Positions 4,465 to 62,936 of a stretch of 64,000 bases of DNA are shown piece after piece. Position 1 is the stretch's first letter; every line of letters begins with the position of its first letter. Origin of the DNA: Alphaproteobacteria bacterium (lineage in GTDB: Bacteria; Pseudomonadota; Alphaproteobacteria; UBA828); assembly GCA_963422645.2 (NCBI GenBank), contig CAXXVO010000008.1, positions 288,001 through 352,000 on the forward strand, written 5' to 3'. The position numbers were made by a program, and so were the translations under genes. The notes under the pieces were generated by a model, which was not told the DNA's origin, did no database searches, and was given only the letters and a program-made list of their open reading frames with translations.

Positions 4465-5240
4465 TCACCGCTCCTTCACATAGGGAACGCCGCTCGCCTT
4501 GCCTTGGGCGGCACCGCCTTGCCCACGAAGCCTGCGAGCAGCAGCACGGTTAGCAGGTAGGGCAGCGCCTGGATTGCTTGCACGGGGATCACGCCGACGC
4601 CGGGGATATCCACGCCTTGCAGCCTGGCCTGCACGGCATCGGCGAAGGCGAAGAGGAAGCAGGCGAAGAGGGTCGGCACCGGGCGCCACTTGCCGAAGAT
4701 GAGCGCGGCGAGGGCGAGGTAGCCCATTCCTGCGCTCATGTCGCGCACGAAGAGCGCGTTCTGGGCGATCGAGAGCGACGTGCCGGCAACGCCGCAGAGG
4801 ATGCCGCAGACGATCATCGCCCGGTAGCGCATGCCGGCGACCGAGATGCCCGCCGTGTCCACCGCCTCCGGCGCCTCGCCGACCGCGCGAAGCCTCAGCC
4901 CGAAGCGGGTCTTGTAGATGAACCACGCCGCGAGCGGGACCATGCCGAGCGCGATATAGACGATCAGATTATGGCCGCTCGCCATCTCCGAATAGATCTG
5001 GCCGATGAAGGGCACGTCGCTCAGCCGGTCGGCGAAGGGGAAGTGAATCGGGCGGAAGCGCGCGCCATCCCCCACCAAGGGCGTATGCCCCCCCTGGCCG
5101 AACCAGGCGAGTGAGAGCACCGGCCCGAGCCCCGCCACCAGGATATTCAGCGCCATGCCCGAGACCACCTGATCGCCCCGGTGGGTGACGCAGGCGAAGG
5201 CGTGAACCATCGCGAGCGCGACCGAGGCGCCCACGCCGGC
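4465..5240 (-). pseudogene. ABC transporter permease (nucleoside/BMP-type), N-terminally truncated and frameshifted near its 3' end
   Basis: GDQVVSGMALN, TRFGLRLRAVGE, GMGYLALAALIFGKWRP motifs. Homology stops at the 5240/5241 junction. A 5-bp tandem duplication GCCTT (4496-4505) moves the natural tail ASGVPYVKER* into another frame. Confidence 0.8.
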
Positions 5241-5345
5241 TGTAGCCGGCCGGAAGTCTTTGCGAATCGCGGCCGGAAGTCTTTGCGAATGGCCTGGAAA
5301 ATCGGCTGGTTTTCGGGGCTGAACCGGGCTGGAAAAACCGGCCTG
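5241..5345. mobile_element. Orphan transposon end (TGT terminus plus tandem transposase-binding-like repeats)
   Basis: TGT at 5241 exactly at the permease break; identical 21-mers CGGCCGGAAGTCTTTGCGAAT at 5247-5267 and 5270-5290; further CTGGAAAA..CGGC repeats near 5294 and 5329. Confidence 0.65.
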
Positions 5346-5412
5346 TGCATGGGCCATGAAGGAGCGCTGCGCGGGGGGTTCAGGGCCCGTGCACGGGCGG
5401 TGCGTGGGGGTT

Positions 5413-5997
5413 TCAGGCGCGGTCGGGACCGGGGCGGGCGCCGGGGCGGCACGGGCGTTCGAGTTCGGCCTTCCACCATTCGGGGTCTTCGACGGCGCGT
5501 TCTGCGGCGTCGTATCCGTCGTGACCGGTCCATCTTCCGGGGTCGGCGTCGGCGTACCACCGGCCTGCGCCGCGGTGTCGCTCGAGGGCGTCGTCGATGC
5601 GGGCGACCTGGTCCGCCGGGCGTCCCCGGCAGAAGCGCTCGAAGAAGGCGTTGAGGCGGCATCGGGGGCAGCGTCCGCAGGGCTCTGCCGCAACGGTGCA
5701 TCGCCAGGTGAGCGCCTCCAGCCCGGGCGGGAGCAGGGCCTGGAGCATGAAGCGCCCGGCGACGGGTCCGAAGGGGGCGTCCCGCGACGGCGGCCACTGC
5801 GCGCCGTCCTCCCAGCCGGGGAAGAAGGGGAGTTCCGTGGGGACGGCGGTGCGCGCGCGGTAGGCCGGATGCCAGTACATGCGGTGCATGTCGTCGGCGG
5901 TGTCCCACGAGGTGATGCCGGGCATCACCCGGTCGGCGCGGTGGCGCTCGGCCTCGTCGGCGTGGGTTGCGTACCGGTCGATGCGGATTGATGCCAC
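5413..5997 (-). CDS. Hypothetical protein with a QueC-like Cys motif (probable fragment)
   Basis: LTWRC-x6-CGRCPRC resembles the QueC TWSCY-xn-CGxCxxC zinc site; no SGGxDS PP-loop present. Confidence 0.45.
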   Translation of the reverse strand: MASIRIDRYATHADEAERHRADRVMPGITSWDTADDMHRMYWHPAYRARTAVPTELPFFPGWEDGAQWPPSRDAPFGPVAGRFMLQALLPPGLEALTWRCTVAAEPCGRCPRCRLNAFFERFCRGRPADQVARIDDALERHRGAGRWYADADPGRWTGHDGYDAAERAVEDPEWWKAELERPCRPGARPGPDRA

Positions 5998-6066
5998 GTT
6001 CGAGGAAGCGATACAGGCGCTCGTGCGGTCCGTGCGCGTCCGCTAAATTCCGCGTCGGAAGCCTCG

Positions 6067-6291
6067 ATGATGAAAGGCAGGTGCACCTTCACTCAAACTG
6101 AAGCCCATGCCATCCGGGCCATGATCGCACGACTCAGAGATTCAGACTCAAGCGAACAGAAGCGGATACGTAACAAGCTCCGGAGCGAGCATGGATTCTG
6201 GATCACTGATTTCGGTCGCAGGGGAACAAATGGCTTCACGGTCGCCGACTTCGATGCGTTGATCGAGAGTGGACGAATCCACATACATTGA
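6067..6291 (+). CDS. Small hypothetical protein (74 aa)
   Basis: Protein-like composition, lower GC than the core genes, co-oriented with the next gene. Confidence 0.55.
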   Translation: MMKGRCTFTQTEAHAIRAMIARLRDSDSSEQKRIRNKLRSEHGFWITDFGRRGTNGFTVADFDALIESGRIHIH

Positions 6292-6319
6292 TTTCGGCAC
6301 TTTCCTACATAATCCCCAA

Positions 6320-7348
6320 ATGAAAGATACCGCCTACTACTACCCGGCTCCCTACTGGCTGGCGAAGGAAGGGGACTGGATCAAGTCGTTACTGCTCTTC
6401 TTCGACGAGGTGGCCATCCTGCTGCCCGACTACATGCGGGGGCACCATAGAGACGCGGATCCGTCCCTCGCCGGACCGTTGGAAGATCAGGGGCTCCTTC
6501 GCGTTCTGGAACCGAATGAGTGGATAGACGCAGAAGTGGCCGAGACGCTGGCGAAGATCATGGTGGAATTCCTTGCGGAAGGAGTCTTCGACGGGTTGCC
6601 GGAGGAACGCTACTTTGCGGAACTGTCTCAGTCGCGGATCGGCTACGGGGCGGACGCAGAGCTGGCGGGGTTCCTGGTGGACGAACTGCGGCAGAGAGGG
6701 CTGGCGCGCCCCAGCAAGGACGGCGTGTCGATCCCGCTCCATCCGGTGGTCCGCACGACAATTCTGGTAATCCTGGGCCAACTGGCGCGCCGCGCAGGAG
6801 ACCGTCGCGGGATGGCAGTGCATCCGGCGACGGACTGCCCAAAGGCGACTACGGACCTGGTGGACGCATTGTCTAGGGAGTCGATGCCGTCCTGTGAAGG
6901 CGTGATCAGGCTGGACCTGGAGCCGGTCACGCTGGACCTGTCGTCGATCCCGCTCGAGGAGGTGCTCCAACTCCGGGAGGACCACCGGGAAGCGCACAGA
7001 GCCTACATGAGCAGTCTCCGGGGCTTTCTCGTCGAACTCGGCCGGCTCAGCGACCCCGTGGAGCGGGAGGCGGCGATATTGGAAAGGGGGCAGGAGATCG
7101 CGGACATGGCTCACGACAACCGGCGTTCGGTCAGACGATCCGTGGGCAAGAGCCTTACGTCATGGTCTATGGGAATCGCCGGAGGGGTTTGGTCAGCGGC
7201 GACCGGCGACGTCCTGGGCGCAGCAGTGGGTGGTCTAGGGCTTGGCGCGGGCCTGATTCCAGGGTCGGCGGACACGGTGGGCGCGGTGGGCGCGTACTCG
7301 TATCTCTTTGCTGTAACCAGTGCCTTCGGACAAAGGGCGGAGTGGTGA
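6320..7348 (+). CDS. Hypothetical protein with a C-terminal Gly-rich hydrophobic segment (possibly DUF6236-like)
   Basis: Long clean ORF starting AYYYPAPYW...WIKSLLLFFDEVAILLP; tail GIAGGVWSAATGDVLGAAVGGLGLGAGLI. Confidence 0.7.
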   Translation: MKDTAYYYPAPYWLAKEGDWIKSLLLFFDEVAILLPDYMRGHHRDADPSLAGPLEDQGLLRVLEPNEWIDAEVAETLAKIMVEFLAEGVFDGLPEERYFAELSQSRIGYGADAELAGFLVDELRQRGLARPSKDGVSIPLHPVVRTTILVILGQLARRAGDRRGMAVHPATDCPKATTDLVDALSRESMPSCEGVIRLDLEPVTLDLSSIPLEEVLQLREDHREAHRAYMSSLRGFLVELGRLSDPVEREAAILERGQEIADMAHDNRRSVRRSVGKSLTSWSMGIAGGVWSAATGDVLGAAVGGLGLGAGLIPGSADTVGAVGAYSYLFAVTSAFGQRAEW

Positions 7349-7357
7349 AGGAGCCCA

Positions 7358-8008
7358 GTGCGGGCGTTCCTGGATTACCCGCGCCCGCAAGCGCGACATC
7401 GACCGGGCGGAACTGCGCGGCATCTGGGCGGCGAGAGTGCTCTCGACCTGGCCGGCTACACGCATTATCTGAGCCTCGGAGGCAAGCCGCGCGTCCACTT
7501 CTACGGCGAAGTGCCGTCCTGGCTGAAACGGCTGCCGATGCAGACCCACGTCGTCGTGCACCGGCGCCCGCTTTTTGGCGACGACTCGACCGGCATCGGA
7601 GAGGTCGGTCTCGGGGCCGGGGCCGGCGGGCCGGCGGTCGATGTGTGGCGCTGGCCCATCGAGGCGTCGTCGCCGGAACGTGCCATCCTCGAGGCGCTCG
7701 ACGAGTTGCCGCGCCATGCCAACTTCGAAAACCTGGACAAGGTCTTCGAGGGGCTGGTGTCGCGGCGGCCGAGGCAGCTCGTGGCGCTGCTGGCAGCCTG
7801 CCGCAGCGTGAAGGTGCGCAGGCTGTTCTGCGTCTTCGCGGACCGGCACCGGCATGGCTGGCGCAGGCACCTGGACACCTCGACGATCGACTTCGGGTCC
7901 GGTCCGCGGGCTCTCGCGGCGGGCGGAAGGCTGCATCCGACGTACCGCATCTATGTGCCGAAGGCGTTGGCGTCGGAGCAAGCCACCGCGCGGTACAGCG
8001 ATGCTTGA
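7358..8008 (+). pseudogene. Type IV TA antitoxin AbiEi family, N-terminal domain apparently missing
   Basis: HLGGESALDLAGYTHYL, SSPERAILEALDELP, CRSVKVRRLF motifs; recognisable homology starts only near 7421. Confidence 0.75.
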
Positions 8009-8923
8009 CCGCTATGTCGCCCAAGTCCGCCTGCTGCTGAGCACGCTGCCGGTCATCGCGGGGGAAACCGCGTTCGCGCTCAAGGGCGGCACGGCCATCA
8101 ACCTGTTCTACCGGGACATGCCGCGGCTGTCCGTCGACATCGATCTCACCTGGCTGCCGGTGGGAGACCGCCGGTCGTCGCTCCGGGACATCGACGAAGC
8201 ACTCGACCGCATAGCGGGCATGATCGCCAGCCGCAACAGACGGGTCGCGGCACGCCGCATTGCGGGCGGCGGGTGGCGGCGACACGCGCATCCTGGTGAG
8301 CGACGGCCGGGCGCGCATCAAGATCGAGACCTCCCCGATGATGCGGGGAGCGGTGTATCCGGCGAGGACGATGGACGCTTCGCAGACGGTGACGGAGCGT
8401 TTCGGGTTCGTCGAGATGAACGTGCTGGCCTTTGAGGACCTGTACGCCGGCAAGCTCCATGCGGCGCTCGACCGCCAGCATCCGCGCGACCTGTTCGACG
8501 TGAAGCTCCTGTACGAAAACGAGGGTCTGACCGACGGCCTCTTCCGCGTGTTCATGGTCTATGTCGCGGGCTCCGGCCGCCCGATGCACGAGCTCCTGGC
8601 GTCGGCGGCGCCGCTCAGGGAAGACCTGTATGACGAAGAGTTTGCCGGGATGACCCACGATGCCTTGACCAGGGATGCGCTCGCCGAAACGCGCCGGCGC
8701 CTGTACGCTGTACGCCGACATCAGGTCACGACTGGAGGGCAGGATCGCCGCGTTCCTGCTTTCGCTGCACGACGCCGAGCCCGACTTCGGACTTATCGGT
8801 CTGCCCGAAGCCGCGAAGCTGCCGGCGGTTCGCTGGAAGTTGCTCAATCTGGAGAAGCTCAGGCAGGCCAATCCCCGGAAGCATGACGCGCAGCGGACCG
8901 CGCTCGAAAACCTGTTCCGGTGA
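8001..8923 (+). pseudogene. AbiEii/AbiGii nucleotidyltransferase toxin, two frameshifts
   Basis: FALKGGTAINLF..MPRLSVDIDL and GKLHAALDRQHPRDLFD split over three frames; extra G at about 8271-8273 and a 7-bp duplication CTGTACG at 8701-8714. Confidence 0.85.
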
Positions 8924-9032
8924 CGGTGGGAGCCGAATTCGCGAGTCCCCGCAGGATGATGGCATAGTGTTGATTTCGGTGCTTGGAGCGTTCCTGCGAT
9001 CAGCGTAACGTATCTGAATCATGGTACAATTT

Positions 9033-9286
9033 CCCGCGTTTCGCCACGAGCAGCTCAATCCGGCCGACAGAGTGGGAGCGGCGCGCAGCGCGATGTGGTG
9101 CATCGGGCAAGCGTCGCGACGCACGCTGTCGGCCGGAGAGCGCCGCCCTTCGGGTCGCGCCCAGGCGCCCGACCACGGCGTCGCGGGCCTCAACCGTATT
9201 CCCCGATACGCTTTTCGTCCCGCTCCTTGTGGATCGAACGCCTGGGTGCGACGCAGGCCGTGACCGTGGTGAGAAATGCGGGCTAG
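9033..9286. repeat. Possible MITE / IS1380-like end remnant
   Basis: GGTGAGAAATGCGGGCTAG at 9268-9286, weak inverted partner CCCGCGTTTC at 9033; 17/19 identical copy at 44329-44347. Confidence 0.4.
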
Positions 9287-9322
9287 ACGGGAGATCGGCG
9301 GGCGCGGCGGCCCCTCAGCCGG

Positions 9323-9763
9323 CTAAACCGCCGGCGCTGCCCGTGCTGACCGAAGAGGATCGTCACCGGCGGGTTCAGGCCCGCCCGGCCTCGGAGGATC
9401 CCTCGGCGCGGTGCCGTCGCCCTCACCGAGTACGATGGAGACCAGCTGCATCTCGCGGCCGGTCACGACCTCGGGCGTTGCCCGGCCGCAGTCGGGACAG
9501 CGGAAGTTGTAGGGTCCGCTCGGCGTCTTCACACCGTCGCAGACGCGGCAGTACACGGTGAGCGGAAGCTCTTCGATGTCGAGCACCGCTCCCTCGCAGG
9601 TCGTCCCTCGCGAAGCGGACCGAAAGCTCACGTGGAGCGCGCGGGTCAGTGCCGACAGCACGCCGAGCCGCACGTGAATCCGCGTGACCCGGCGCGCGCC
9701 ATGCGCGAGCGCGTAGTCGTCAACCATTTCGATGAGGCTCCGGGCGAGAGCAAGCTCATGCAT
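9323..9763 (-). CDS. hypA: Nickel metallochaperone HypA
   Basis: N-terminal MHE nickel motif, two CxxC motifs (CRVC, CPDC), GREMQL. Confidence 0.95.
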
Positions 9764-10664
9764 GAGCAGAGGCGTGACGTGCGGGAGGACTTGGATCTAA
9801 CCCCTTCGCCGTCGCTGCCTCCCGGACCTGGGCGCGAATCCAATCCAGCCATGCCGCCATTCCCTCTCCGCTCCGGGCGGAGAGACGGATCTCGGCGATG
9901 GCCGGGTTCACCCTCCGGGCGTACTCGAGCGCCCGGTCCGGGTCGAAGTCCACGTGCGTCAGGAGATCTGTCTTGCTGAGCAGCATCAAATCGGCCGCTG
10001 CGAACATATCGGGATACTTGATCGGCTTGTCCTCGCCCTCGGTCACCGAAAGGATGACCACCTTGCATGCTTCGCCGAGGTCGAAGGCCGCCGGGCACAC
10101 CAGATTGCCCACGTTCTCGATGAAGACGACGCCGCCCGGAGCGAGCGGCAGGTCATCCAGCGCGTGCCCGACCATGTGCGCATCCAGATGGCAGCCCCGG
10201 CCGGTGTTGATCTGCACCGCCGGCACGGCACACGCTCTGATGCGCTCCGCGTCGTTGCTGGTCTCCTGGTCTCCTTCCACCACCCCGATCGGCAGCGTGC
10301 CCTCTAGTGCCGTGATGGTCTCGACCAGTAGAGTGGTCTTGCCCCCGCCTGGGCTCGACATCAGGTTGAGCGCCAGCACCCCCTGCTCGGAGAGCCGGCG
10401 CCGGTTGGCGGCAGCATCCGCGTCGTTGCGGGAGAGGATGTCCCGCTCGATCTCGACGAGGCGCTCCTGGGAGAATCCCGGTACGGAGAGCCCGGCTTCT
10501 CCCGCCCCGTAATGGTCGTGAGCGTGACCGTGGCGGTGTCCGTCACCGGATCCGTCGTGGGAGTGATGGTGATGGGTGTGGGTGTGATGGTGGCCCGAAC
10601 GCTCACCGTGAGCGTGACCCTGGTCGCCCGCAGTAACATCGCCGCATCCGCATACCGAGCACAT
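9756..10664 (-). CDS. hypB: Nickel-incorporation GTPase HypB
   Basis: MCSVCGC, His-rich tract, [40 protein letters not shown]. Confidence 0.97.
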
Positions 10665-10932
10665 GAGCGCCTCCGCACGAAGGGTCCGTCAGAGTCCTGA
10701 CGGGGGATCGAAGAACTGATGGAGTTGAAGGGGCAGGTTACTTGGCAGGCAATGCGTGAATCAAGCGAACCTCGGTCGGGCTGACGTGGCCGATCACGTG
10801 CGCCGCGGCACGTGTGCACGAGGGGATGGCGTGTGCTATTCAGCCTGGGGCCTCCGTCGGCGGACGGCGGCCTCGAACTGGGTGCCTTGCGTCCCGCCGC
10901 ACTCGCTCTAGTCGCGCAGAGGGCCACCATTC

Positions 10933-12000
10933 ATGACCGAATCCCGCACCTCCGCTTGGGAGTTCGTGCCCCACCAGCATCGGGGCCCGAAGCAACAGGC
11001 GGGCGACGACGACCATATCCGCTCGCCCAAGCTGCACAACGGCTCCTTCAAGTCGAGCGGTATCGCGACCTTCCTCGGCGCCCCCTACTGTCCGCCGGAC
11101 CGTCATGCGATCCGCGCCATGGGGGCCAAGATCTGCTTCCTCGGCGTTCCCTGGGATCAGGGACAGATGGTGCGCGCCGGCACCTCGCAAGGCCCGGCCG
11201 GCCTGCGCGAAGCCTCGACCCAGTATTTTCCCTACATGTTCGAGTACGACGTCGACCTGGTCAGCGTCTTCCAGCCGGTCGACTGCGGCGACGTTCCGAT
11301 CGTGCCGGGCAACAACGACCTCTCCCACGAGTACATCCACCAGTACATCACCGAATGCCTGGAAGGCGGCGCCAAGGTCATCTTCTGTGGCGGCGACCAC
11401 TCTGCGCCGATCCCGGGCTCCCGTGCGCTTTCGGATTTCCACCGGGAGGGCCGCATCGGCTATCTGCACATCGATTGCCATCTCGACTCCGCGCCGGATT
11501 GGGGCGGCATCGACAACACCAACTGCTCGGGCCCTTCGCGCGCGTTCGATCTGCCCAACTGCGACGGCGCCAACATGGCCCACATGGGCTCGCGCAACGG
11601 GCTCAACCCGAAGGACTGGTACGACTTCTACGTCGACAACGACGTCCGCCTCATCCCCATGATGGAGGTGGTCGAGCGCGGCGTCGAAAGCTGCACCCGG
11701 GAGATTTTCGAGCTCGCCTGGAAGGGCACGGATGCCGTCTATTGCTCCTGGGACACCGACTCGCTGGACGCCGGCTGCATGCCCGGCACGACAGCGCCGG
11801 AATGCTTCGGCATCAAGTCCCGGGAGGCGATTCAGCTCGCCCGTATCGCCGGCACCTACGGCGCCGACGTCCTGGAGATTTCCGAGCTCTGTCCCCAGTT
11901 CGACGTGAGCCAGATGAGCACCAAGCTCGCGTGCTGCATGATCTACCACTACCTCGGCAGCCGGGCCCAAACACTCCGGGAGCAGGGGATCGCGCCATGA
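10933..12000 (+). CDS. Ureohydrolase (agmatinase/arginase family), catalytic subunit; MfmA-like
   Basis: All six metal ligands present: GGDHS, DCHLD, WDTD; also ELCP. N-terminus PHQHRGP...SPKLHNGSFK resembles metformin hydrolase MfmA as recalled (not aligned). Confidence 0.9.
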   Translation: MTESRTSAWEFVPHQHRGPKQQAGDDDHIRSPKLHNGSFKSSGIATFLGAPYCPPDRHAIRAMGAKICFLGVPWDQGQMVRAGTSQGPAGLREASTQYFPYMFEYDVDLVSVFQPVDCGDVPIVPGNNDLSHEYIHQYITECLEGGAKVIFCGGDHSAPIPGSRALSDFHREGRIGYLHIDCHLDSAPDWGGIDNTNCSGPSRAFDLPNCDGANMAHMGSRNGLNPKDWYDFYVDNDVRLIPMMEVVERGVESCTREIFELAWKGTDAVYCSWDTDSLDAGCMPGTTAPECFGIKSREAIQLARIAGTYGADVLEISELCPQFDVSQMSTKLACCMIYHYLGSRAQTLREQGIAP

Positions 12001-12040
12001 ACGCACCGACCTCGAATCACGAAGAGAAGGGGACAGAGGA

Positions 12041-13075
12041 ATGAACCCCGCCAAGGCCTACGCACACCTCTTCTCGCCTCTGGGAGGCGACGAGGCCGAC
12101 AACTACCGTGCCCCGGGGCAGATCACCTTCCTGCGTTCCGAGCACGTCGCGCTGGAGGCGGAGAAGCTGCGCGAGGTCAGCGCCCGCTATGCATTCGTCG
12201 GCGTGCCCTTCGACGAGGGCAATATCGGCAAGCCCGGCTCCGAAGAGGGACCGCGGGAGTTTCGGCTGGCCTCCCAGGAGTACTTCCCCTACTGGTTCGA
12301 GTATCAGGTCGATCTTAACGGTAGCAGCGTCGACTGCGGCGACGTGCAGATGCCCAAGGTCAACCCGGAGCTCTCGCGCCAACGCATCTACAAGGCGGTG
12401 CGAGAGATCCTCGCCGCGGGCCTGACCCCCATCATCTGCGGCGGCGATCGCTCGCTTTCCATCCCCGCGACCCAGGCGCTTTCGGATCACATCGGCGCCG
12501 ACAAGAAGATGGGCTACCTGCATTTCGGTGCTCACCTGGATCTTGCCGACACCTGGGCCGGCGAGAGGAACCTCAGCACCTGCGCGCTCTCCCGCATCAC
12601 TGAGCTCCCCAACCTGGCGAGCGACAACGTGAGCCACTTCGGCGCGCGCAACTCGCTCAACCCCAAGGACTGGATCGATCTGGCTCGGGAACGCGGGATT
12701 CGCTTCTTCCCCATGTTCGAGATCCTGGAGCGCGGGGTCGACGATGTGGCGGCGGAAGCCATCGGCCGGGCATGGGACGGCACCGACGCCCAATACGTGA
12801 GCTTCAACTTCAATGTGATGGACGCTTCGATGGCGCCGGGCGTGACGGCGGCGGAGCCGGGTGGCATCGAATCGCGAGAGATGATGCGGATCGCCGGCCT
12901 GCTCGGCGCCCGCGGCGGCGTTAGCGTCATCGATATCTCCGAGCTCTGCCCGATCTTCGACGTGAGCGGCACGACCTCCCGGCTCGCGGTCTGTGTCGTG
13001 CTGCGCACCCTGGCGGCGCTCGCCCAGTCGCGCGGCGAGCAGGTCGACCAGGCAATCAAACGGCCCAGCGACTAA
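12041..13075 (+). CDS. Ureohydrolase-fold non-catalytic subunit; MfmB-like
   Basis: Ligand motifs degenerate to GGDRS, GAHLD, FNFN; N-terminus MNPAKAYAHLFSPLGG resembles MfmB as recalled. Confidence 0.88.
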   Translation: MNPAKAYAHLFSPLGGDEADNYRAPGQITFLRSEHVALEAEKLREVSARYAFVGVPFDEGNIGKPGSEEGPREFRLASQEYFPYWFEYQVDLNGSSVDCGDVQMPKVNPELSRQRIYKAVREILAAGLTPIICGGDRSLSIPATQALSDHIGADKKMGYLHFGAHLDLADTWAGERNLSTCALSRITELPNLASDNVSHFGARNSLNPKDWIDLARERGIRFFPMFEILERGVDDVAAEAIGRAWDGTDAQYVSFNFNVMDASMAPGVTAAEPGGIESREMMRIAGLLGARGGVSVIDISELCPIFDVSGTTSRLAVCVVLRTLAALAQSRGEQVDQAIKRPSD

Positions 13076-13141
13076 CCCGTCGCATCGGCCGGCTGCAACT
13101 GTCCCGTCCAGGGGGCCCGCTCCAGGCCAAGGGGGACGGAC

Positions 13142-13975
13142 ATGCACATCGCCTGCCTGACCTTCGACTTCGATGCCGTCTCGGGCTTCATCGCCCAGGG
13201 CCTGCGCTCACCGACGCCGATCAGCCGGGGCGAGTTCGGCCTGGTCGGTGCCGATCGCATCCTGGACCTGCTCAGGCAGCACGACATTCCGACGACCTGG
13301 TTCATCCCCGGTCACACCATCGAGACCTATCCTGAGATGTCCGTCCGCATCACGATTGCAGGACATGAGATCGGCCATCACGGCTGGACCCACATGACTC
13401 CCGTCACCATGTCGCGCGACGAGGAGGAGGCGGGGCTCCAGCGCGGCACCGATGCCATCGTCAAGCTGTGCGGGCAGAAACCCAGAGGCTACCGCTCGCC
13501 CGCCTGGGACCTGAGCGAGAACACGATAGACCTGCTGGTCTCGCGCGGCTTCCTCTACGAGAGCAGCATGATGGGGAACGACTACACCCCCTATTTCGCA
13601 CGCTCGGGCGACGTGGTCGCGCTCGAAGAGCCCATGCAACTCGGGCCCGAGACCAGCCTGGTCGAGATGCCCATCAGCTGGACCCTGGACGACTACCCGC
13701 ACTTCGAATACGTGCGCAACGCACGCTACAGCATGCAGGGCCTGATGCCGGCCGGCGGCGTGCTGCAGAACTGGGTGGACGACTTCGACTACATGACCCG
13801 CACGATGGAATGGGGCGTGCTCACCTACACCTGCCATCCCTTCGTGATCGGCCGCGGCCACCGCATGATGATGCTGGAGCGGCTGATCGAGGCGCTCCGG
13901 GGGCTGGGCGCGGTCTTCATGACCATGGAGGACGCCGCGAACGCCTGGCTGGAGCGCACTAGGCCCTCAGGCTGA
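13142..13975 (+). CDS. Polysaccharide deacetylase (CE4) family, PuuE/HpPgdA-like amidohydrolase
   Basis: LTFDFD, HEIGHHGWTH, GYRSPAW, HPFVIGR motifs; no signal peptide. Confidence 0.88.
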   Translation: MHIACLTFDFDAVSGFIAQGLRSPTPISRGEFGLVGADRILDLLRQHDIPTTWFIPGHTIETYPEMSVRITIAGHEIGHHGWTHMTPVTMSRDEEEAGLQRGTDAIVKLCGQKPRGYRSPAWDLSENTIDLLVSRGFLYESSMMGNDYTPYFARSGDVVALEEPMQLGPETSLVEMPISWTLDDYPHFEYVRNARYSMQGLMPAGGVLQNWVDDFDYMTRTMEWGVLTYTCHPFVIGRGHRMMMLERLIEALRGLGAVFMTMEDAANAWLERTRPSG

Positions 13976-15562
13976 TGCGCGGATCATCTCGGCCACTTTC
14001 TCGCCGATCATGACGCAGGTCGCGAGGGGATTGCCGCTGACGATGGTCGGCATGATCGAGGCGTCCGCGACAAGGAGGTTCTCGAGCCCCCGCACGCGCA
14101 GGCGGTGATCGACCACTGCTAGCTCGTCCCGGCCCATCTTGCAGGTGCCGACCGGGTGGTATCCGCTGAGCGAGTTCTCGCGCAGGTAGGCGCGCCACTC
14201 GTCGTCCGTTTGCACCTCGCTCGAAGGGCGGTAGTCGCCGGCGATGGACTTGGCGAGCGGCTCGGTCTGGAACAGTTTGCGCTGCAGCTTGGCGCCGGCG
14301 AGCAGTAGTTCGAGGTCGCGTTCGTCGGCGAAGAGGTTTGGTTGAATCGTCGAATGCGTGAGCGGGTCCGCGGAACGGAGCCCGACCCGCCCTCGGGAGA
14401 AGGGCCTGAGCAGGTTGATGAGGCCCGTGACCGCCGGCCGGTCGAAGAGGACCGGCCCGTCCGCCGACAAATCGTAGCCGGCGGGCGTGAACATGTATTG
14501 AAGGTCGGAGCGGCCCTCGCTCCCGTCAACTCGGAGGAACGCCGTGACCTGGGCGTGGGGCGAGGCCGCCGGGCCGGAGCCCGCAAGCAGCCATTGTGCG
14601 CCGTAGAGCAGCGCGCCCACGGGGCCCATCAGCGTGTTGTAGGTCGGCACGCTTGCAAAGCAGGTCTGCGCAAGGCCCGGGTGATCGTGCAGGTTCTCGC
14701 CCACGCCCGGCAGATCGTGAACCACCGGAATGTCGAACGTGGGCAAGTGCGCCGCCGGGCCTACGCCCGAGAGCATGAGGAGCTGCGGCGAAGCATACGT
14801 ACCGGCGCACATGATCACCGCGCGCGTCGCCGCCGCCCGCTCGGTGCGCTCCCGGCGCATGTATTCAACCCCGGTCGCGCGCTTGCCGTCGAAGAGCACG
14901 CGCCGGATGTGGGCGTGAGTCAGCACCCGCAGGTTGCGCCGCCGCATCGCCGGCCTGAGGTAGGCGCGCCCCGTGCTGTGCCGCCGCCCCCTGCGCTGGG
15001 TGGCGGGCACGTAGCCGACGCCGGCCTGCGGCGGCGTGTTGATATCGGCCACGCGCTTGATACCCAAGTTGACGCAGGCCTGGAGATAGTCGTCCGAGAG
15101 CGGGTGCAGGCTGCGGATGTTGGAGACCGAGAGCGGGCCGCCCGCTCCGTGATAGGCATCGGCGCCGTTCTCGTTGTTCTCCGAGCGCTTGAAGTAGGGC
15201 AGCACGCTCTCGAAGTCCCAGCCCTCGCACCCGAGCGCGGCCCAGCCGTCGTAGTCCTCCGGCTGACCCCTGACGTACGACATGCCGTTGATCGCGCTGG
15301 TGCCGCCCAGCACCTTGCCGCGCGGCATGTAGTCCTCGCGCCCGCCGCGCGTCGGATCGGGCTCGGCCTTGAAGCCCCAGTCGTAGCGCGGATTGGACAA
15401 TGCCAGGACAAGCCCTGCGGCGGGCATCGAGACGGCGATGCTCCGGTCCGAGCCGCCGGCCTCCAGTACCAGCACGCGGCTGCGCCCGTCCTCCGTCAAG
15501 CGGTTGGCGACGACGCTGCCGGTCGTCCCCGCACCCACGACGATGTAATCCCACGTCACCAT
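13967..15562 (-). CDS. GMC family FAD oxidoreductase (choline dehydrogenase-like)
   Basis: DYIVVGAGTTG, PRGKVLGGTSAING, VGENLHDH, YHPVGTCKMG motifs. Confidence 0.93.
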   Translation of the reverse strand: MVTWDYIVVGAGTTGSVVANRLTEDGRSRVLVLEAGGSDRSIAVSMPAAGLVLALSNPRYDWGFKAEPDPTRGGREDYMPRGKVLGGTSAINGMSYVRGQPEDYDGWAALGCEGWDFESVLPYFKRSENNENGADAYHGAGGPLSVSNIRSLHPLSDDYLQACVNLGIKRVADINTPPQAGVGYVPATQRRGRRHSTGRAYLRPAMRRRNLRVLTHAHIRRVLFDGKRATGVEYMRRERTERAAATRAVIMCAGTYASPQLLMLSGVGPAAHLPTFDIPVVHDLPGVGENLHDHPGLAQTCFASVPTYNTLMGPVGALLYGAQWLLAGSGPAASPHAQVTAFLRVDGSEGRSDLQYMFTPAGYDLSADGPVLFDRPAVTGLINLLRPFSRGRVGLRSADPLTHSTIQPNLFADERDLELLLAGAKLQRKLFQTEPLAKSIAGDYRPSSEVQTDDEWRAYLRENSLSGYHPVGTCKMGRDELAVVDHRLRVRGLENLLVADASIMPTIVSGNPLATCVMIGEKVAEMIRASA

Positions 15563-15805
15563 CGCCTCCCCGCGATCCCGCCCCGCGCCGGATTTGCGCG
15601 CACACCTCCCTGAAAATGGAGACTGCGGGCCCCGGCGTTTGGACATAGGGTCAGACTTCCTGACCTCGTGATGCTGGCTGTTCTGGGCAGCGTGCCGGGA
15701 ACTCCTTGAATTCTGATACATTTCGGTTGTTTCAGGCGGTTTTTCGCTGGGTGTCGCGCCCGAGGTCTGATAGTATAATTTGATACCAATTGCACGGTCT
15801 CAACC

Positions 15806-16120
15806 ATGCCCAGTACCCTCCCAATGTGCCCTCCAGAGGCGGTCTCGATCGGCAACAGCTGCTTCGCCGTCCTGATCTCGGACGACACCTTCACCTACTT
15901 TTCCAACCTCATTCCCTTTGACAGCCACGCCGCCGATGACCGCACGGCCATGCTCTTGCGGATCGGCCGCCTCGCGGCGATCAGCGCGGTCTCGCCGCAG
16001 GAACTGGCTGACGCTTTCGCTGTCTCGCGCGCGACGGTGCAGCGCGCACGACGGCGCTACCTGGCCGAGGGCGAAGCGGGGTTCATGAAGCCCCGGCGCG
16101 GTCGCGGGCCGTCGGTGTGT
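15806..16120 (+). pseudogene. N-terminal HTH fragment of the outer-element transposase
   Basis: SPQELADAFAVSRATVQRARRRYLAEGEAGF helix-turn-helix; cut at the IS21 left end. Confidence 0.7.
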
Positions 16121-16236
16121 TGTTAAGCGTGGAAAAGTGACCCCCTATTGGGGGTGATCGGCGTCCAAAATTGACCCCCTTGGATTTGTGTCCATGAACA
16201 CACCTCGTCGTTTGGACGGACGGGGTGGTGGGGGAG

Positions 16237-17751
16237 ATGCTGGTTGTGGAAACGATCGCGAAGATCCGTCGGGATCATCTGGTGAAGGGCGTTCCGATCA
16301 AGAAGCTCGCCCGGGATTTGAGGGTTTCCAAGAACACGATACGCAAGGTGGTGCGGGGCGATGCGACCTCGCACAGCTACGAGCGCAAGATCCAGCCGAT
16401 GCCGAAGCTTGGGCTGTGGGTGGAGGAGCTTGAGCGCCAGCTGAAGGCCAACGAGAAGAAGGCACGCAAGGATCGGCTGTCTCTTCTGCGGATTCATGAA
16501 GACCTTGTGTCGCTGGGCTACAAGGGCGGCTATGACGCGGTTCGCCGCTATGCCAGGGCCTGGCGGCGCCGGTGGCGGCTGTTGTCGCCGGCGCAGGCCT
16601 ATGTGCCGCTGATCTTCGATCCCGGCGAGGCCTACCAGTTCGACTGGAGCCACGAGTACGCGCGTCTGTCGGGCGCGACGACCAGGGTGAAGGCGGCGCA
16701 CATGCGGCTGTGCCACAGCCGGATGTATCTGGTCCAGATCTTTCCCCGCGAGAGCCAGGAGATGGTCTTCGAGGCGCACGAGCGTGCCTTCCGCTTCTTC
16801 GGCGGGGTCTGCCGGCGGGGCATCTACGACAACATGAAGACGGCGGTGAGCACGATCTTCGTGGGCAAGAAGCGGGACTACAACCGCCGCTTCCAGGAGC
16901 TGTGCTCGCACCATCTGGTGGAGCCTGTGGCGTGCACGCCAGGGGCTGGCTGGGAGAAGGGGCAGGTCGAGAAGCAGGTGGGTGACCTTCGCGGCCGCCT
17001 GTTCGTGCCCATCCCGCGGGGCCGCTCCTACGCCGAGATCAACGAGTGGCTGATGGATCGGTGCATCGAGGACGCCAAGAAGCATCCGCATCCGACAATC
17101 CCGGGCAAGACGGTGTGGCAGGTGTTCGAGGAGGAGCAGCCCTTCCTGATGGCGTATCGCGGCCCCTTCGACGGCTTCCATGCCAGCGAGGTGTCGGTCT
17201 CGAAGACCTGTCTGGTGCGCTTCGACAACAACCAGTACAGCGTCGCGGCCCGCGCCGTCGGCCGGCCGGTGGACGTGCGGGCCTATGCCGATCGGATCGT
17301 CATCCGCCAGGACGGCGAGACCGTTGCCGAGCACCCCCGCAGCTTCGGGCGCGGCCGGTTCGTCTACGATCCGTGGCATTACGTGCCGATCCTGACGCGG
17401 AAGCCCGGCGCGCTACGCAATGGCGCGCCCTTCAAGGACTGGCAGTTGCCCAACGCGCTCGGCCGCCTGCGAACCCGGCTCGCGGGCCACGACGACGGCG
17501 ACCGGCAGTTCGTCAAGGTGCTCGCGGCGGTGCTGGAGGACGGACTGGAGGCGGTTGAGGCGGCCTGTGCCGAGACGCTCGACTGCGGTGCCTGCAGCGC
17601 CGACGTGGTGCTCAACATCCTCGCCCGGCAGCGCCAGCCGGCACCGCCGGCAATCATCCCGACGCCCGAGGGCCTGCAGCTTCGCCACAAGCCGGTAGCC
17701 GACTGTCAGCGCTACGACAGCCTGAGGGAGGCCGGTCATGGAGCGTCATGA
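16237..17751 (+). CDS. istA: IS21 transposase IstA
   Basis: [24 protein letters not shown] (DDE residues). Confidence 0.95.
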
Positions 17752-18466
17752 TGTGCTGGAGATGATGACCCAGCTGAAGCTCGCAGGTATGCGCGCCGCT
17801 TACGACGACATCCTTGCCGACGGGCTCAAGCGCCGCCATCCGGTGCAACAGATCATCGGTACGCTGCTGCAGGTCGAGATCGCCGACAAGAGGGCCCGCT
17901 CGATCAAGTACCAGATGGCCTCCGCCAAGCTGCCGACGGTCAAGGAGCTGGCCGACTTCGACTTCGCCGCCTCGCCGGTCAACGAGCCCCTGATCCAGGA
18001 GCTCGCCGGCGGCGGCTTCCTCGAGGGCAAACGCAACATCGTGCTGGTCGGCGGCACCGGTACCGGCAAGACCCATCTCGCCGTCGCCATCGCGCGGTCC
18101 TGCATCCGCAAGGGCGCGCGCGGCCGGTGCTACAACGTCGTCGACCTGGTCAACCTCCTCGAGGCCGAGCTTCGCGCCGGACGCCAGGGCCGCACTGCAG
18201 ACCAGCTCGTCCGCCGCGACTTCGTCATCCTCGACGAGCTCGGCTACCTGCCCTTCGCCCAGGCCGGTGGGCAGCTGCTCTTCCATCTGATGAGCCGGCT
18301 CTACGAGCGCACCTCGATCGTCATCACCACAAACCTCGCCTTCGGCGAATGGCCATCCGTCTTCGGCGACCCCAAGATGACCACAGCGCTGCTCGATCGC
18401 CTCACCCATCATTGCGAGATCATCGAGACCGGCAACGAGAGCTGGCGCTTCAAGAACCGCTCCTGA
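17738..18466 (+). CDS. istB: IS21 helper ATPase IstB
   Basis: [29 protein letters not shown]. Confidence 0.96.
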
Positions 18467-18669
18467 CCCGCCGCCGGCCTCCCTTGCGGCCCGGTTGCCC
18501 CGGTGGGCCAACAGGGACCCCCCACGCGGCTTCGCTCCGCGTAGCGCAGGGCGCCACACGAAGCCGCGCGGGTCCCCCCTATTGGCTACCGGGACAACCT
18601 CCGCCGTGCCACTCAGGGGGGTCAATTTTGCACGCCGATCGGGGGTCAGTATTGAAAGCCGATTGACAC

Positions 18670-18747
18670 ATAGTCTACGACATCGACGGGGCCTCGGAAT
18701 CCGCGCGGCTCGTGTCACCTAAAATCAGCAGAGGTCAGGAAGTCTGA
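18670..18747 (+). pseudogene. C-terminal remnant of the outer-element transposase
   Basis: Open frame IVYDIDGASESARLVSPKISRGQEV*, with its stop codon inside the right TIR. Confidence 0.55.
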
Positions 18748-58371: not shown

Positions 58372-58738
58372 ATGAGCGACGACACTTACCAGGACATCGG
58401 CTACGGCGCGATGGAGATCGGCTTCGGCGAGCGACCCGGCATTCTCGTGGTCGATTTCCAGACCGGCTTCACCCAACCCCAATTTCCCCTCGGCAACTGC
58501 CCCCTGGTGCATCGCGCCGTGGAGAACACGGCGCGGGTGCTCGAGTCCGCCCGCGCGGCGCGTGTGCCGGTCGCCAACTGCTACACCGCCTATCATTCCG
58601 AGCGCGACATGCCCTACTGGAAGATCGCACCGGTGCGCGAGCACTTCTTCGAGGGCGACCCTTGCGCCGAGATGGAGCCCCGGACCTCCGACCCCGACTA
58701 TGACTACATCCTGCGCAAGTCGGGCCCTTCGATCTTCT
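58372..58738 (+). pseudogene. Isochorismatase-family cysteine hydrolase, truncated by IS66
   Basis: GFGERPGILVVDFQ...LRKSGPSIF, then breaks at GTAACTGCCCAGG; catalytic Cys region absent. Confidence 0.85.
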
Positions 58739-60570
58739 GTAACTGCCCAGGTTCTTGCTGTGAAAATTCTCTGGGATTCGGCACAACGCTACCCACGCGA
58801 CGCCCGTGTGCTCCTCTGGGGTCGCCGGGTTTCACAGCTCACGATGCCCCTCTTGCGGACTGCGACCGGTAAGCTACCCCGATGTGGCCCGAAGTCCGCC
58901 CGCGCGACGGGCACCGATTTTCATTCTATGGGGTGGTCCAGCACGGCGTCGACCATGATCGTTTATGAGAATGGCTCCGCTGTTGGAGAACCCGTGCCAG
59001 GTGAGCTTACGCGCACTTGACGGTGGCGATGAGCCGATCCGATGGGCTGGTCAGGGCTTCGATGATATTCCAGCCCTGCTTTCTGGCGGTGGTGATGACG
59101 CTGCGCAGGATGGCGAAGTTCTCGGCCCCCTGCGCGGACCGGAAGCCCCCGGAGATCTTCTGGCGCAGCTTCATCATCCGAAGGTCGCGCTCGGCCTCGT
59201 TGTTCGTGAACCCGACCTCGAGGTCGATCAGGAACCGGAGCACCGCGCATTTGTGGTCGCGCAGCCTCAAGGCCAGATTGTGACCGATCCTTCGCTTCCG
59301 GCGCTTCTTCCTCTTGCCAGGCGAGAACGGTGGTTGGCTCTCGTGAAAGGCCAGCGCATCGGCGATGATCTCGTCGTATCGGCGCTCGATCAGCGCCACA
59401 AGCCTCGCCGGAACGGCGATATCCTTGTCCAGCGCGATGCGGGCGGCGCGATTGGCTCGGCGCAGGAGCTGCTGCATCCGCCGGGCCCAAGCCTCCCCTT
59501 CGATGTCCACCAGCGCCTGCAACTCCCGCAGGTGATGGGCGTTGCACAGGCCGTGCTCCACCCCTTCCATCGCGAAGTACGGCTTCCAGTGATCGTGCAC
59601 GACGATGCCGGAGACACCCGAGAGCAGGGCGCCGCGCTTGCCGCTGACCCGGTACGCCGCCAGCAGCGGCGTGCAGATCACATGAAGCCACTGCGTCTGA
59701 CCGCCGATCCGCAAGCCGGTCTCGTCCATGTGTTTCACCCGCGCCGTGCCCGCCGCCAGGTCCTGTATGTGCAAGGCCGCGTCCCGCAGCCGCTCGGCCG
59801 CCCTCTCGCTCATCGTCGCCAACGTCGCAGCCGTCACCGGCGCGCCGAAGAGCTCGGCCATCACCTGCGACAGCCGATCCTCCGGCAGGAAGTGAGCGTG
59901 CTGAAGGTAGACCGCCACCCCGGCAATGCGCGGGCCGTACTGCACCGGCGCCGACACCCCGTCGGGGAACGCCGCCCGGGTCACCGTCCCGCAATGCCCG
60001 CAGCACTTGGCATGCGCCCGGTGCTCGGTCACCTCCAGGGGGCTCGGCTCGGGCAGATCGAACACCTGGCGGGCGACGGGCGTTCCCGCCCTGGCCGCGT
60101 CCGAAAGCGGCGAACCGCATCCCTTGCAGGAAGCCGGGACGTGATCCTTCACCCGATCCGGGTGATCGGCGCGGCGCAGCGTCTTGCCCTTGTGGCCGGG
60201 CTGGCCACCGGGCTTGCGGCCCGATTTGCCGCGCAGGCTTCGGGTTCGCCGCTTCGAATTCGGCTTCCTCAGCCCATCGCTCGAAGGCGGCTTGCCGCTG
60301 TTGAGGCCGAGACGGCGCTCCAACTCCTCGATGCGCTCGACGAGACGCGCGACTTGCTCTTCCAGCCGCGCGTTCTGCTGCCGAAGCCAGGCATTTTCCT
60401 CCCGAAGCCGGGCGTTCTCCTCCTCCAGGCGGGCGATCTTCTGCGCGGGCGTTTCGGGCGCTGCTCCCGTCGAAGGGCCGCGCGGCGACTCGGGATTGCT
60501 CATGTCGTTGTTGAGTCATTTCCCGAAATTCCCGTCAAGCCCTTTCCACCAACTCCGAACGAGAAACGCC
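58739..60570 (-). mobile_element. IS66-family element 1 (single transposase; second TIR missing)
   Basis: Terminus GTAACTGCCCAGGT at 58739; element 2 abuts 67 bp upstream of the transposase ATG. Confidence 0.8.
59007..60503 (-). CDS. IS66 transposase
   Basis: KPPSSDG, GGQPGHKG, HMDETG, CNAHHLREL, FTNNEAERDLR. Confidence 0.95.
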   Translation of the reverse strand: MSNPESPRGPSTGAAPETPAQKIARLEEENARLREENAWLRQQNARLEEQVARLVERIEELERRLGLNSGKPPSSDGLRKPNSKRRTRSLRGKSGRKPGGQPGHKGKTLRRADHPDRVKDHVPASCKGCGSPLSDAARAGTPVARQVFDLPEPSPLEVTEHRAHAKCCGHCGTVTRAAFPDGVSAPVQYGPRIAGVAVYLQHAHFLPEDRLSQVMAELFGAPVTAATLATMSERAAERLRDAALHIQDLAAGTARVKHMDETGLRIGGQTQWLHVICTPLLAAYRVSGKRGALLSGVSGIVVHDHWKPYFAMEGVEHGLCNAHHLRELQALVDIEGEAWARRMQQLLRRANRAARIALDKDIAVPARLVALIERRYDEIIADALAFHESQPPFSPGKRKKRRKRRIGHNLALRLRDHKCAVLRFLIDLEVGFTNNEAERDLRMMKLRQKISGGFRSAQGAENFAILRSVITTARKQGWNIIEALTSPSDRLIATVKCA

Positions 60571-60735
60571 GTAACTGCCCAGGTACCCCCTCTCTCTTAT
60601 GGAACAAGCCAGTTCCTTTTGCGTCAACGCCCCCACGCCGCGGGGGTGCCTACTCTCTTGAGCGCGAGAGGATGATGAACGCCGCGTCGCGAACAAGATG
60701 AGAGGACAGCGATACTCAGGATGAGCCGGAGAAGT

Positions 60736-62274: not shown

Positions 62275-62936
62275 GTGTCTTCGGCCTCGACGGCCATCAT
62301 GGCGGCGAGCACGGCGAGGCGTTCGCCCGGCGGCAAGGCCTGGTAGCGCCGGCCCCAGTTGGCTGCCTTGCGCTTGATGCGCTGGCGGTCGGTGAAGTTC
62401 CGGCCTGCGTGGCTGGCCCAATGCATCCGGTCGGGGGCGTAGTTGAACCAGACGACCTCGGTTCGCACCAGACCCTGGGTCGTGACCTGCAGCGCCAGCC
62501 GGCGCCATCCCGCCAGCACCTCGTCATAGAGCGCCGACGGATGGCCCGAGATCATGACCTGGCAGGGCAGAGCCTTGAGCAGCGCGAGAAGCGCGACGTG
62601 GCCGGCCTCCTCGTACTCGAAGCGGTAGCGCTGCGCCGAGCGGCGGGTCGCGTGCAGATAGGGCGGATCGCTGTAAACCAGCTCCGGGCCCAGGAACGGG
62701 AACGAGGCCAGGAAGTCATGGGCACAGCCGTGAACCAGATCGACCGGGTAGTCGCAGACGAAGGCCTCGAGCGCCTGCGCATCGCGGTCGATGCCGATCG
62801 AACGCACGGCCGGCGGCTTGCGCTTCGTCAGCGCCCCGCCCCCAAGGTGGCTTTCGATGTAGACGGAGTGCGGCGGCATCAGCGCAATCAGCGCTTGGCA
62901 CAGACCTGCTGTCGCCTTCGAGCCGAAATACCCCAT
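62271..62936 (-). CDS. Dam-like (D12 class) N6-adenine DNA methyltransferase
   Basis: YFGSK, YIESHLGGGA (SAM-binding motif I), YSDPPY (motif IV), VMISG. Confidence 0.88.
   Translation of the reverse strand: MGYFGSKATAGLCQALIALMPPHSVYIESHLGGGALTKRKPPAVRSIGIDRDAQALEAFVCDYPVDLVHGCAHDFLASFPFLGPELVYSDPPYLHATRRSAQRYRFEYEEAGHVALLALLKALPCQVMISGHPSALYDEVLAGWRRLALQVTTQGLVRTEVVWFNYAPDRMHWASHAGRNFTDRQRIKRKAANWGRRYQALPPGERLAVLAAMMAVEAEDT

Follow-up and report, generated by a model that had tools for sequence, protein, structure and literature searches.

A DmgH/MefH-family ureohydrolase locus with an inverted HypBA module on the chromosome of a UBA828 alphaproteobacterium

The stretch of DNA analysed here, referred to as the window, comprises 64,000 nucleotides from an alphaproteobacterium of the GTDB lineage UBA828 (assembly GCA_963422645.2, contig CAXXVO010000008.1, positions 288,001 to 352,000 of the forward strand), and between its positions 9323 and 13975 two nickel-chaperone genes are transcribed divergently from a pair of arginase-fold genes. 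On the minus strand lie hypA (9323..9763; a nickel metallochaperone of 146 residues, Pfam HypA, 88.5 bits) and hypB (9756..10664; a nickel-binding GTPase of 302 residues, TIGR00073, 278.9 bits against a cut-off of 121.2), with reading frames that overlap by 8 bases. An intergenic region of 268 bp (10665..10932), presumed to hold both promoters, separates them from the plus-strand genes for a catalytic ureohydrolase subunit of the DmgH/MefH family, alpha (10933..12000; 355 residues), and a non-catalytic, scaffold subunit with a degenerate metal site, beta (12041..13075; 344 residues). Alpha and beta are 40 bp apart on the same strand, both match the Arginase family of Pfam (167 and 200 bits), and 66 bp behind beta starts a CE4 gene of the polysaccharide-deacetylase fold, similar to HP0310 (13142..13975, plus strand; 277 residues, Pfam Polysacc_deac_1). 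The original prediction, which was made from the sequence alone, had described hypB-hypA as divergent from two arginase-fold genes and a further hydrolase; all five of its open reading frames (ORFs) were recovered at the same positions in our ORF list for 6000-18000, and Pfam and NCBIfam bear out the gene families. It was also right in calling the locus chromosomal, with housekeeping genes all round (rpsO, pnp, the cytochrome oxidase genes cox, ccm, leuS, lexA and gltX), and in seeing no hydrogenase or urease, as a Pfam and NCBIfam scan of 54 window ORFs found no domain of either kind. We consider it probable that the locus encodes a nickel-dependent, HypAB-matured ureohydrolase of the DmgH/MefH family, acting most likely on N,N-dimethylguanidine, that was gained on a cassette.

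When compared with all PDB chains, alpha matched subunit A of metformin hydrolase (8snf_D, 8ryi_B, 8x3g_A; E 2.7e-181) and beta matched MfmB (8ryi_C; E 1e-164), with the next families far weaker (GdmH-like 'agmatinase 2', about 1e-40). GdmH is a homomeric enzyme that acts on free guanidine. As is proposed for the window locus, GdmH with GhaA/GhaB (7esr, 7oi1) represents a nickel-dependent ureohydrolase matured by HypA/HypB homologues, but it is far more distant (E 1.6e-40 for alpha) and is a single-chain entry with no paired alpha and beta. Identity to the proteins of pMET-2 (CP098607.1, Pseudomonas mendocina MET-2) is 69.1% between alpha and MfmA and 67.2% between beta and MfmB, which fits the earlier description of the pair as clearly diverged from MfmA/MfmB. 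Alpha and beta are themselves paralogues, 42% identical over 316 residues. In the active-site numbering of Tassoulas (taken from passages of PMC10927577), alpha keeps all six metal ligands (H159, D184, H186, D188, D277, D279) along with Q81, C201, W232, E321 and the family-specific Asn200 that replaces the catalytic His. In beta the ligands are lost from three motifs: Arg replaces His in GGDRS, Gly replaces the first Asp in HFGAHLD, and Asn replaces two Asp in SFNFNVMD. Across a comparison of 83 beta sequences, motifs 1 and 3 recur in 68 to 72 and the exact HFGAHLD in 39. The proposal of an MfmAB-related pair is thus borne out, with one intact and one degenerate subunit. Two other names were tried for the pair and rejected, the Mn-agmatinase SpeB for alpha (TIGR01230, 113.1 bits against a cut-off of 174.3) and the formimidoylglutamase HutG for beta (TIGR01227, 122.6 bits against 229.15).

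On these sequence grounds we assign the pair to the DmgH/MefH (MfmAB) family of heteromeric, nickel-type ureohydrolases, as a further member of a family that has already been described. By analogy with the solved MfmAB/MefH complexes, at 67-69% identity, it should form an alpha2beta4 heterohexamer, and the same analogy argues that it is probably nickel-dependent.

The published work on this family bears directly on the question of the substrate. According to the passages of Sinn et al. (2024; PMC11399263) used throughout this text, metformin hydrolase descends from a dimethylguanidine hydrolase, DmgH, which is presented as a widespread predecessor. The DmgH of Aminobacter niigataensis DSM 7050 hydrolysed N,N-dimethylguanidine and not metformin, and a synthesised operon of Hyphomicrobium sp. 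SMAG_U6089 hydrolysed dimethylguanidine and gave no detectable metformin activity (PMC11399263). The same passages report that the four changes S184C and S288N/T289S/S290A give DmgH metformin activity, and that methylguanidine and the other guanidines tested were hydrolysed by neither MefH nor DmgH. A heterohexameric homologue with 71% alpha identity is credited with a trace of metformin activity, about 20,000-fold below that of MetCaCb, in passages of Li et al. (2024; PMC11271267). Among the matches listed in a search of the literature from 2022 onward there was no further characterisation of a dimethylguanidine hydrolase.

Both tested DmgH enzymes are among the 80 loci that we scanned, the Hyphomicrobium SMAG_U6089 operon as L046 and the A. 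niigataensis DSM 7050 operon as L053, and the identities we obtained between them (69.8%/68.0%) match the published 70%/68%. The window proteins are 75.6% (alpha) and 71.3% (beta) identical to those of L046, and 68.6% and 68.0% identical to those of L053. At all 15 published positions (Q81, H159, D184, C185, H186, D188, N200, C201, W232, D277, D279, 289-291 and E321 in Tassoulas numbering) alpha is the same as L046. The specificity residues C182 and T286-T287-A288 of the window protein correspond to positions 184 and 288-290 in the numbering of Sinn et al., where the window alpha and L046 both have C and TTA, the Aminobacter DmgH has S and STS, and MfmA has C and NSA; the loop CMPGTTAPEC, to which attention had been drawn at the outset, lies at alpha residues 282-291. 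The Asn288-Ser289 pair that marks metformin hydrolase is replaced by Thr-Thr in the window, and only Cys184 and Ala290 are held in common. Because of the identity to L046, the C/TTA signature and the agreement at 15 of 15 positions, taken together with the assay of the L046 operon in the passages of PMC11399263, dimethylguanidine hydrolysis is the best-supported function, and the sequence points to the window enzyme being most likely a nickel-dependent dimethylguanidine hydrolase rather than a metformin hydrolase. The view that metformin is probably not the natural substrate was therefore well founded, and dimethylguanidine was among the guesses made with it. The idea of a natural reservoir behind the drug-degrading enzymes cannot be counted as new, as DmgH is already characterised as the predecessor and a homologue with an identical active site has been tested (PMC11399263, in the same passages).

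The likeness to L046 extends from the tandem alpha and beta genes, the C/TTA signature and the 15 active-site positions to the degenerate metal site of beta and the adjacent hypB and hypA. The two differ in that hypB, hypA, alpha and beta are co-directional in L046, whereas hypBA of the window is inverted and comes from another HypB lineage, and the window clade is not sister to L046 in the alpha tree. With L053 the window locus shares the family, the architecture, the metal ligands and N200, E321, Q81, C201 and W232; L053 has S/STS in place of C/TTA and a TetR gene in its cluster, and the passages of PMC11399263 place urease genes downstream in the Aminobacter cluster. In common with MfmAB/MefH/MetCaCb (8snf, 8ryi, 8x3g) are the fold, the alpha/beta pairing, the adjacent nickel chaperones, Cys184 and Ala290. 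However, the pMET-2 cluster has the order XRE, CodB, TetR, hypB, hypA, mfmA, mfmB, hupE on a plasmid segment flanked by insertion sequences (ISs), and its XRE, CodB, TetR and HupE are all absent from the window locus.

To place these residues in the family, one genome per GTDB species was surveyed; 114 pattern matches were obtained, 98 of which encode a relative, and 80 loci were kept. Together with three loci from congeners, other loci from a search of the genus and the window itself they gave 87 alpha sequences, among which L082-L084 repeat L087-L089 and L085 is identical to L027. The signatures are C/TTA in 50, C/TSC in 18, S/STS in 12, A/STS and C/TTC in three each, and C/TTL in one. Cys184 (72/87) and Ala290 (50/87) are therefore the majority state, Ser289 occurs in 18/87, and Asn288 is private to MfmA among the sequences compared. 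In a quick maximum-likelihood tree of alpha (89 rows, rooted on six beta subunits, branch support from the SH-like approximate likelihood-ratio test only, with the duplicate short loci L082-L084 and the fragment L007 left out), C/TTA is paraphyletic. The S/STS group of Aminobacter and its relatives (15 rows, support 99) is derived and is sister to a C/TTA clade of Hyphomicrobium and Methyloceanibacter (support 90), and the C/TSC group is a derived clade of 21 rows (support 100). The window falls in a C/TTA clade of 12 rows (support 96), its nearest alphas being those of two congeners (97% and 95%), followed by three gammaproteobacterial metagenome-assembled genomes (MAGs) at about 88-90%; the C/TTA carriers are MAGs, several of them of sponge-symbiont taxa. 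Among the neighbours in 84 loci, an ABC ATPase was found in 66, a permease in 38, an NMT1-type binding protein in 34, an AsnC-type regulator in 30, ureF in 28, ureAB in 27, ureC in 25 (19-28 for the urease genes), a glutamine-synthetase-like gene in 26 and TetR in 24, counts that agree with the published linkage to urease.

Several features of individual branches were seen in the course of this survey. In the L055-L080 branch (for example L078 and L066), 21 alphas have C/TSC or C/TTC together with Thr at Q81 and Ala at C201, and the substrate of this branch may be different; we know of no tested member. L001 and L075, the closest relatives from beyond the genus (alpha about 90%), have alpha and beta 1.8 kb and 0.7 kb apart and no hypA or hypB within 10 kb upstream. 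All five genomes of the sister family f2 (G025-G029) carry an unusual load of guanidine-type hydrolases, with 10-16 ureohydrolase matches per genome and up to three DmgH-like alpha genes each (75%, 74% and 74% in G026). In the congener G012, a ring-opening amidohydrolase of the AtzD/TrzD type (Pfam, 456 bits) and an Amidohydro_3 gene lie about 5 kb downstream of the DmgH operon (L089, 17026-19440), a neighbourhood that hints at a wider catabolism of nitrogen-rich compounds.

The chaperone genes have a history of their own. HypA has an N-terminal MHE motif, two CxxC pairs and a C-terminal tail of about 34 residues, HypB has an N-terminal CxxCGC motif and a His-rich stretch, and the two are 51.4% and 60.6% identical, respectively, to their pMET-2 counterparts. 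Among the 80 loci, 71 have a co-directional hypA no more than 400 bp in front of alpha, and in 62 of these 71 hypB precedes it; of the others, seven lack hypA although their upstream flank covers 1.5 kb or more, one carries it elsewhere and one is too short. The divergent order of the window occurs in none of the 80 other loci, which confirms the different layout that had been noticed. Identity between the window chaperones and those of L078 is 86% for HypA and 93% for HypB, but the alpha of L078 belongs to the C/TSC class and reaches only 68%; with the loci in alpha's own clade the values fall to 50-78% for HypA and 66-74% for HypB. L078 and L079 are also the partners of the window in the HypB tree (support 80.9), and forcing it together with HypB of the alpha clade, a group named after the identities had been seen, costs 200.6 log-likelihood units and is rejected (approximately unbiased test, p-AU 2.9e-48). 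By its sequence, the HypBA module is thus phylogenetically foreign (xenologous) to the alpha-beta pair beside it. No match to the large subunit of [NiFe]-hydrogenase was found in the window's own genome, which is 99.6% complete, and hypA is single there; because of these two observations HypAB is assigned to the hydrolase and not to a hydrogenase. The suggested tie between hypAB and the gene pair agrees with this absence of a hydrogenase match and with the position of hypA upstream of alpha in 71/80 loci.

Comparison within the genus reveals how the locus came to lie where it does. A close orthologue of alpha is present in three of 20 other genomes of the genus (G005, 97%; G009, 95%; G012, 86%), the remaining 17 having only agmatinase-like genes of about 28% identity. 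In G005 and G009 an insert containing beta, alpha, hypB, hypA and a NitT/TauT-type ABC transporter (ATPase, NMT1-type binding protein and permease) lies between the CE4 gene and an isochorismatase-family gene, and at the breakpoints about 6.97 kb replaces 197 bp. Read from the permease, the G005 cassette has the order permease, binding protein, ATPase, inverted hypA-hypB, alpha, beta. In G012 the genes occupy a different site and follow the canonical co-directional order, with a transporter of this type again upstream; relative to that order, the G005 cassette has had its chaperone module turned round and exchanged. Homology between the window and G005 or G009 stops at 9283/9323, immediately behind hypA, where a dispersed repeat of about 225 bp (9059..9284) abuts the end of the gene; this repeat occurs in multiple copies across contigs at 80-96% identity. 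Read depth in the bin 9051-9301 is roughly tenfold higher in the DNA run X2 and far higher in X7, and run X1 has depth in this bin and none in either flanking bin. The former flank, with the isochorismatase and EamA genes, is now on contig C16. All four genes hypA, hypB, alpha and beta are full-length, with no stops or frameshifts, and 87-98% identical to those of G005.

We found no intact dedicated transporter or regulator adjoining the locus, as the original prediction had said, but its picture of a system without a transporter does not hold for the cassette: because two congeners carry the ABC transporter in the same cassette, the absence in the window is secondary, and the missing transporter and regulator are a loss in an IS-expanded genome. 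Nested ISs at 15652..18746 (plus strand), an IS21 element at about 16118-18669 with istA (16225-17751) and istB (17738-18466) inside a second IS, are absent at the same site in G005 and G009. The genome contains 60 copies, each 2500 bp or longer, of the 2552-bp IS21 element, most of them 99.7-100% identical, and 99 copies of a 467-bp end of the outer IS. This massive IS expansion suggests a recently host-restricted lifestyle.

The CE4 gene had been described as a PuuE-like hydrolase alongside the pair, a description that did not survive. As a PuuE allantoinase it scores 56.4 bits against the TIGR03212 cut-off of 424.6, its closest solved relative is Helicobacter HP0310 (3qbu; 2.7e-59), and a homologue search showed its family to be very large, 7778 of the 8000 candidates scored reaching E 1e-30 or better, with generic 'deacetylase' names only. 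An orthologue (80-96% identity) is present in 18 of the 20 congeners, with or without the hydrolase, which is found in 3/20. In G008, G017 and G011, all without the hydrolase, the CE4 gene lies between a GMC and an isochorismatase-family gene, in the order M32 peptidase, 5-FTHF cyclo-ligase, YmdB, luciferase-like monooxygenase, AMP-ligase, GMC, CE4, isochorismatase-family gene, EamA. In the window, the GMC gene (13967..15721, minus strand; a choline-dehydrogenase-like flavoprotein oxidoreductase by Pfam/NCBIfam) is convergent with the CE4 gene. Membership of CE4 and GMC in the pathway was considered and is ruled out by the congener comparison, in which both occupy the same place without the hydrolase, and by the insertion breakpoint. 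Both are resident genes of the genus and bystanders, and CE4 stands next to beta because the cassette landed beside it. The breakpoint lies 4 bp upstream of the CE4 start codon, so its own upstream region is lost, and the gene may be reached by read-through from the alpha-beta promoter.

Scans of the region for regulatory signals yielded little. The divergent intergenic region holds an inverted repeat, CACGTGC-N6-GCACGTG at 10795-10814, that G005 and G009 preserve only in part; across the whole region, column identity to theirs is 93%, no higher than in coding DNA, and on both counts no regulator site is claimed for the repeat. When 8500-16500 was compared with Rfam at an E threshold of 1, no guanidine riboswitch was found and the sole match was a chance miRNA. 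A sigma-70 promoter and terminator scan of 9000-14200 gave 0 promoter-like sites and one terminator-like site, on the wrong strand inside the alpha-beta junction, a yield that is below the expectation from shuffled sequence and uninformative for a GC-rich genome. The RNA-library run X1, a sponge metatranscriptome by its label, contains 5% of the words sampled, and small contigs listed for it lie on hypB, alpha, beta, CE4 and GMC. Each differs at 10-40 letters and hence comes from a relative, and DNA carry-over is uncontrolled; these contigs were not taken as evidence of transcription, no meaning attaches to stretches that X1 leaves uncovered, and expression of the window locus at present is presumed.

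Taken together, these data favour the following account, which we regard as probable as a whole. A catalytic alpha with a dinickel site would pair with a metal-free beta, and the adjacent HypB GTPase and HypA metallochaperone would be dedicated to loading alpha with nickel. The enzyme would convert N,N-dimethylguanidine to dimethylamine and urea, and the urea could then be used by the ureases of the genome, in which we found three urease alpha genes at E 1e-43 or better and two weaker matches; one NicO-family transporter gene was found there as well, and HupE/UreJ was not. The genes arrived on the cassette of about 7 kb with NitT/TauT-type ABC transporter, hypBA and alpha-beta, inserted between resident CE4 and isochorismatase-family genes, and the transporter part was later lost in the IS-expanded genome. 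Several observations weigh against this account. Its main weakness is that the two tested DmgH enzymes bracket a node to which the window clade does not belong and that the basal branching is poorly resolved, because of which the substrate assignment is weakened. The natural source of dimethylguanidine is described as still elusive, most recently in a 2025 statement (passages of PMC11399263 and PMC12508155). The nearest urease gene on the same contig is about 230 kb from the locus and none is adjacent, and the cassette transporter was not found in the genome, where only a 50-54% identical NitT/TauT-type paralogue is present on contig C7; because the transporter is missing and no urease is adjacent, the supply of substrate to the system may be poor. 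Finally, the foreign, inverted HypBA is only presumed to match the window alpha and beta.

The position outside the tested bracket and the elusive origin of dimethylguanidine (passages of PMC12508155) would also suit an enzyme for another natural guanidine, such as methylguanidine, guanidine or a host- or sponge-derived compound, with CE4 drawn into the same pathway. Beyond the genus, 9 of 81 loci have a CE4 gene of the same family (30-35% identical) no more than 10 kb from alpha, and in six marine gammaproteobacterial loci it follows beta at a distance of 0.2-1.2 kb; the window CE4 gene, having lost its upstream region to the insertion, is probably co-transcribed with alpha-beta. We nevertheless think this reading unlikely: every one of the 15 active-site positions is that of a tested dimethylguanidine-specific enzyme, the passages of PMC11399263 report both MefH and DmgH as inactive on methylguanidine and the other guanidines tested, and the CE4 gene is present in 18/20 congeners and in the same place in three genomes without the hydrolase. 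A related and more far-reaching suggestion, that the C/TTA branch serves a guanidine made by the holobiont (dimethylguanidine or a related compound) in sponge-associated and marine bacteria, with CE4 as a working third step of the operon here, we put forward as speculation.

A metformin hydrolase functionally equivalent to MfmAB is highly improbable. Of the four 'tipping-point' residues, the window alpha does have Cys184 and Ala290 (Sinn numbering) in common with MefH, and trace metformin turnover is reported for the homologue with 71% alpha identity, but that trace lies about 20,000-fold below MetCaCb (passages of PMC11271267), positions 288-289 are Thr-Thr and not Asn-Ser, and no metformin activity was detected for the Hyphomicrobium enzyme, whose C/TTA signature is the same (passages of PMC11399263). 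Moreover, C/TTA is the majority signature of the family (50/87 alphas), and CodB, TetR and HupE of the metformin cluster are absent from the cassette. The locus could also be an eroding remnant, unused since the IS-mediated loss of its transporter and with ORFs still unbroken, as the roughly 60 full IS21 copies and 99 copies of the second IS, the breakpoint at a dispersed repeat directly after hypA, the absent transporter and the flank on C16 might suggest. This we consider improbable, given four full-length genes at 87-98% identity to G005 and the paralogous NitT/TauT-type transporter on C7; the X1 contigs of a close relative on hypB, alpha and beta are a weak hint in the same direction, with DNA carry-over not excluded. 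A nickel-dependent dimethylguanidine hydrolase that arrived on a cassette remains the account we prefer.

Other features of the window may be recorded here. A repeat of about 745 bp at about 5240-5985 occurs some two dozen times across many contigs, at 96-99% identity, and here overlaps the final part of a truncated BPD_transp_2 permease ORF (4476-5693). An AbiEi antitoxin gene lies at 7358-8008 and an AbiEii toxin ORF at 8260-8886; the latter covers only profile positions 93-219 of 238, and with another ORF (7854-8435) overlapping its front, the toxin gene may be frameshifted. At the far end, IS66-family transposase genes (59007-60503 and 60736-62508, within 58963-62508) adjoin a truncated isochorismatase-domain ORF (58372-58872).

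In summary, the locus is a chromosomal, host-associated addition to the natural reservoir behind metformin hydrolase, with local peculiarities of its own in the inverted, xenologous HypBA, the insertion beside unrelated resident genes and the later loss of the transporter. The published picture of the origin of metformin hydrolase is unchanged by our survey, with one correction, namely that of the four 'metformin-enabling' residues two, Cys184 and Ala290, are what most members of the family carry. The comparison further indicates that the enzyme module travels as a cassette of about 7 kb with its own transporter and nickel chaperones, that the chaperone module can be swapped and inverted, and that erosion of the cassette can set in where ISs abound. 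Real interest now attaches to the substrate of this enzyme and the natural source of dimethylguanidine.

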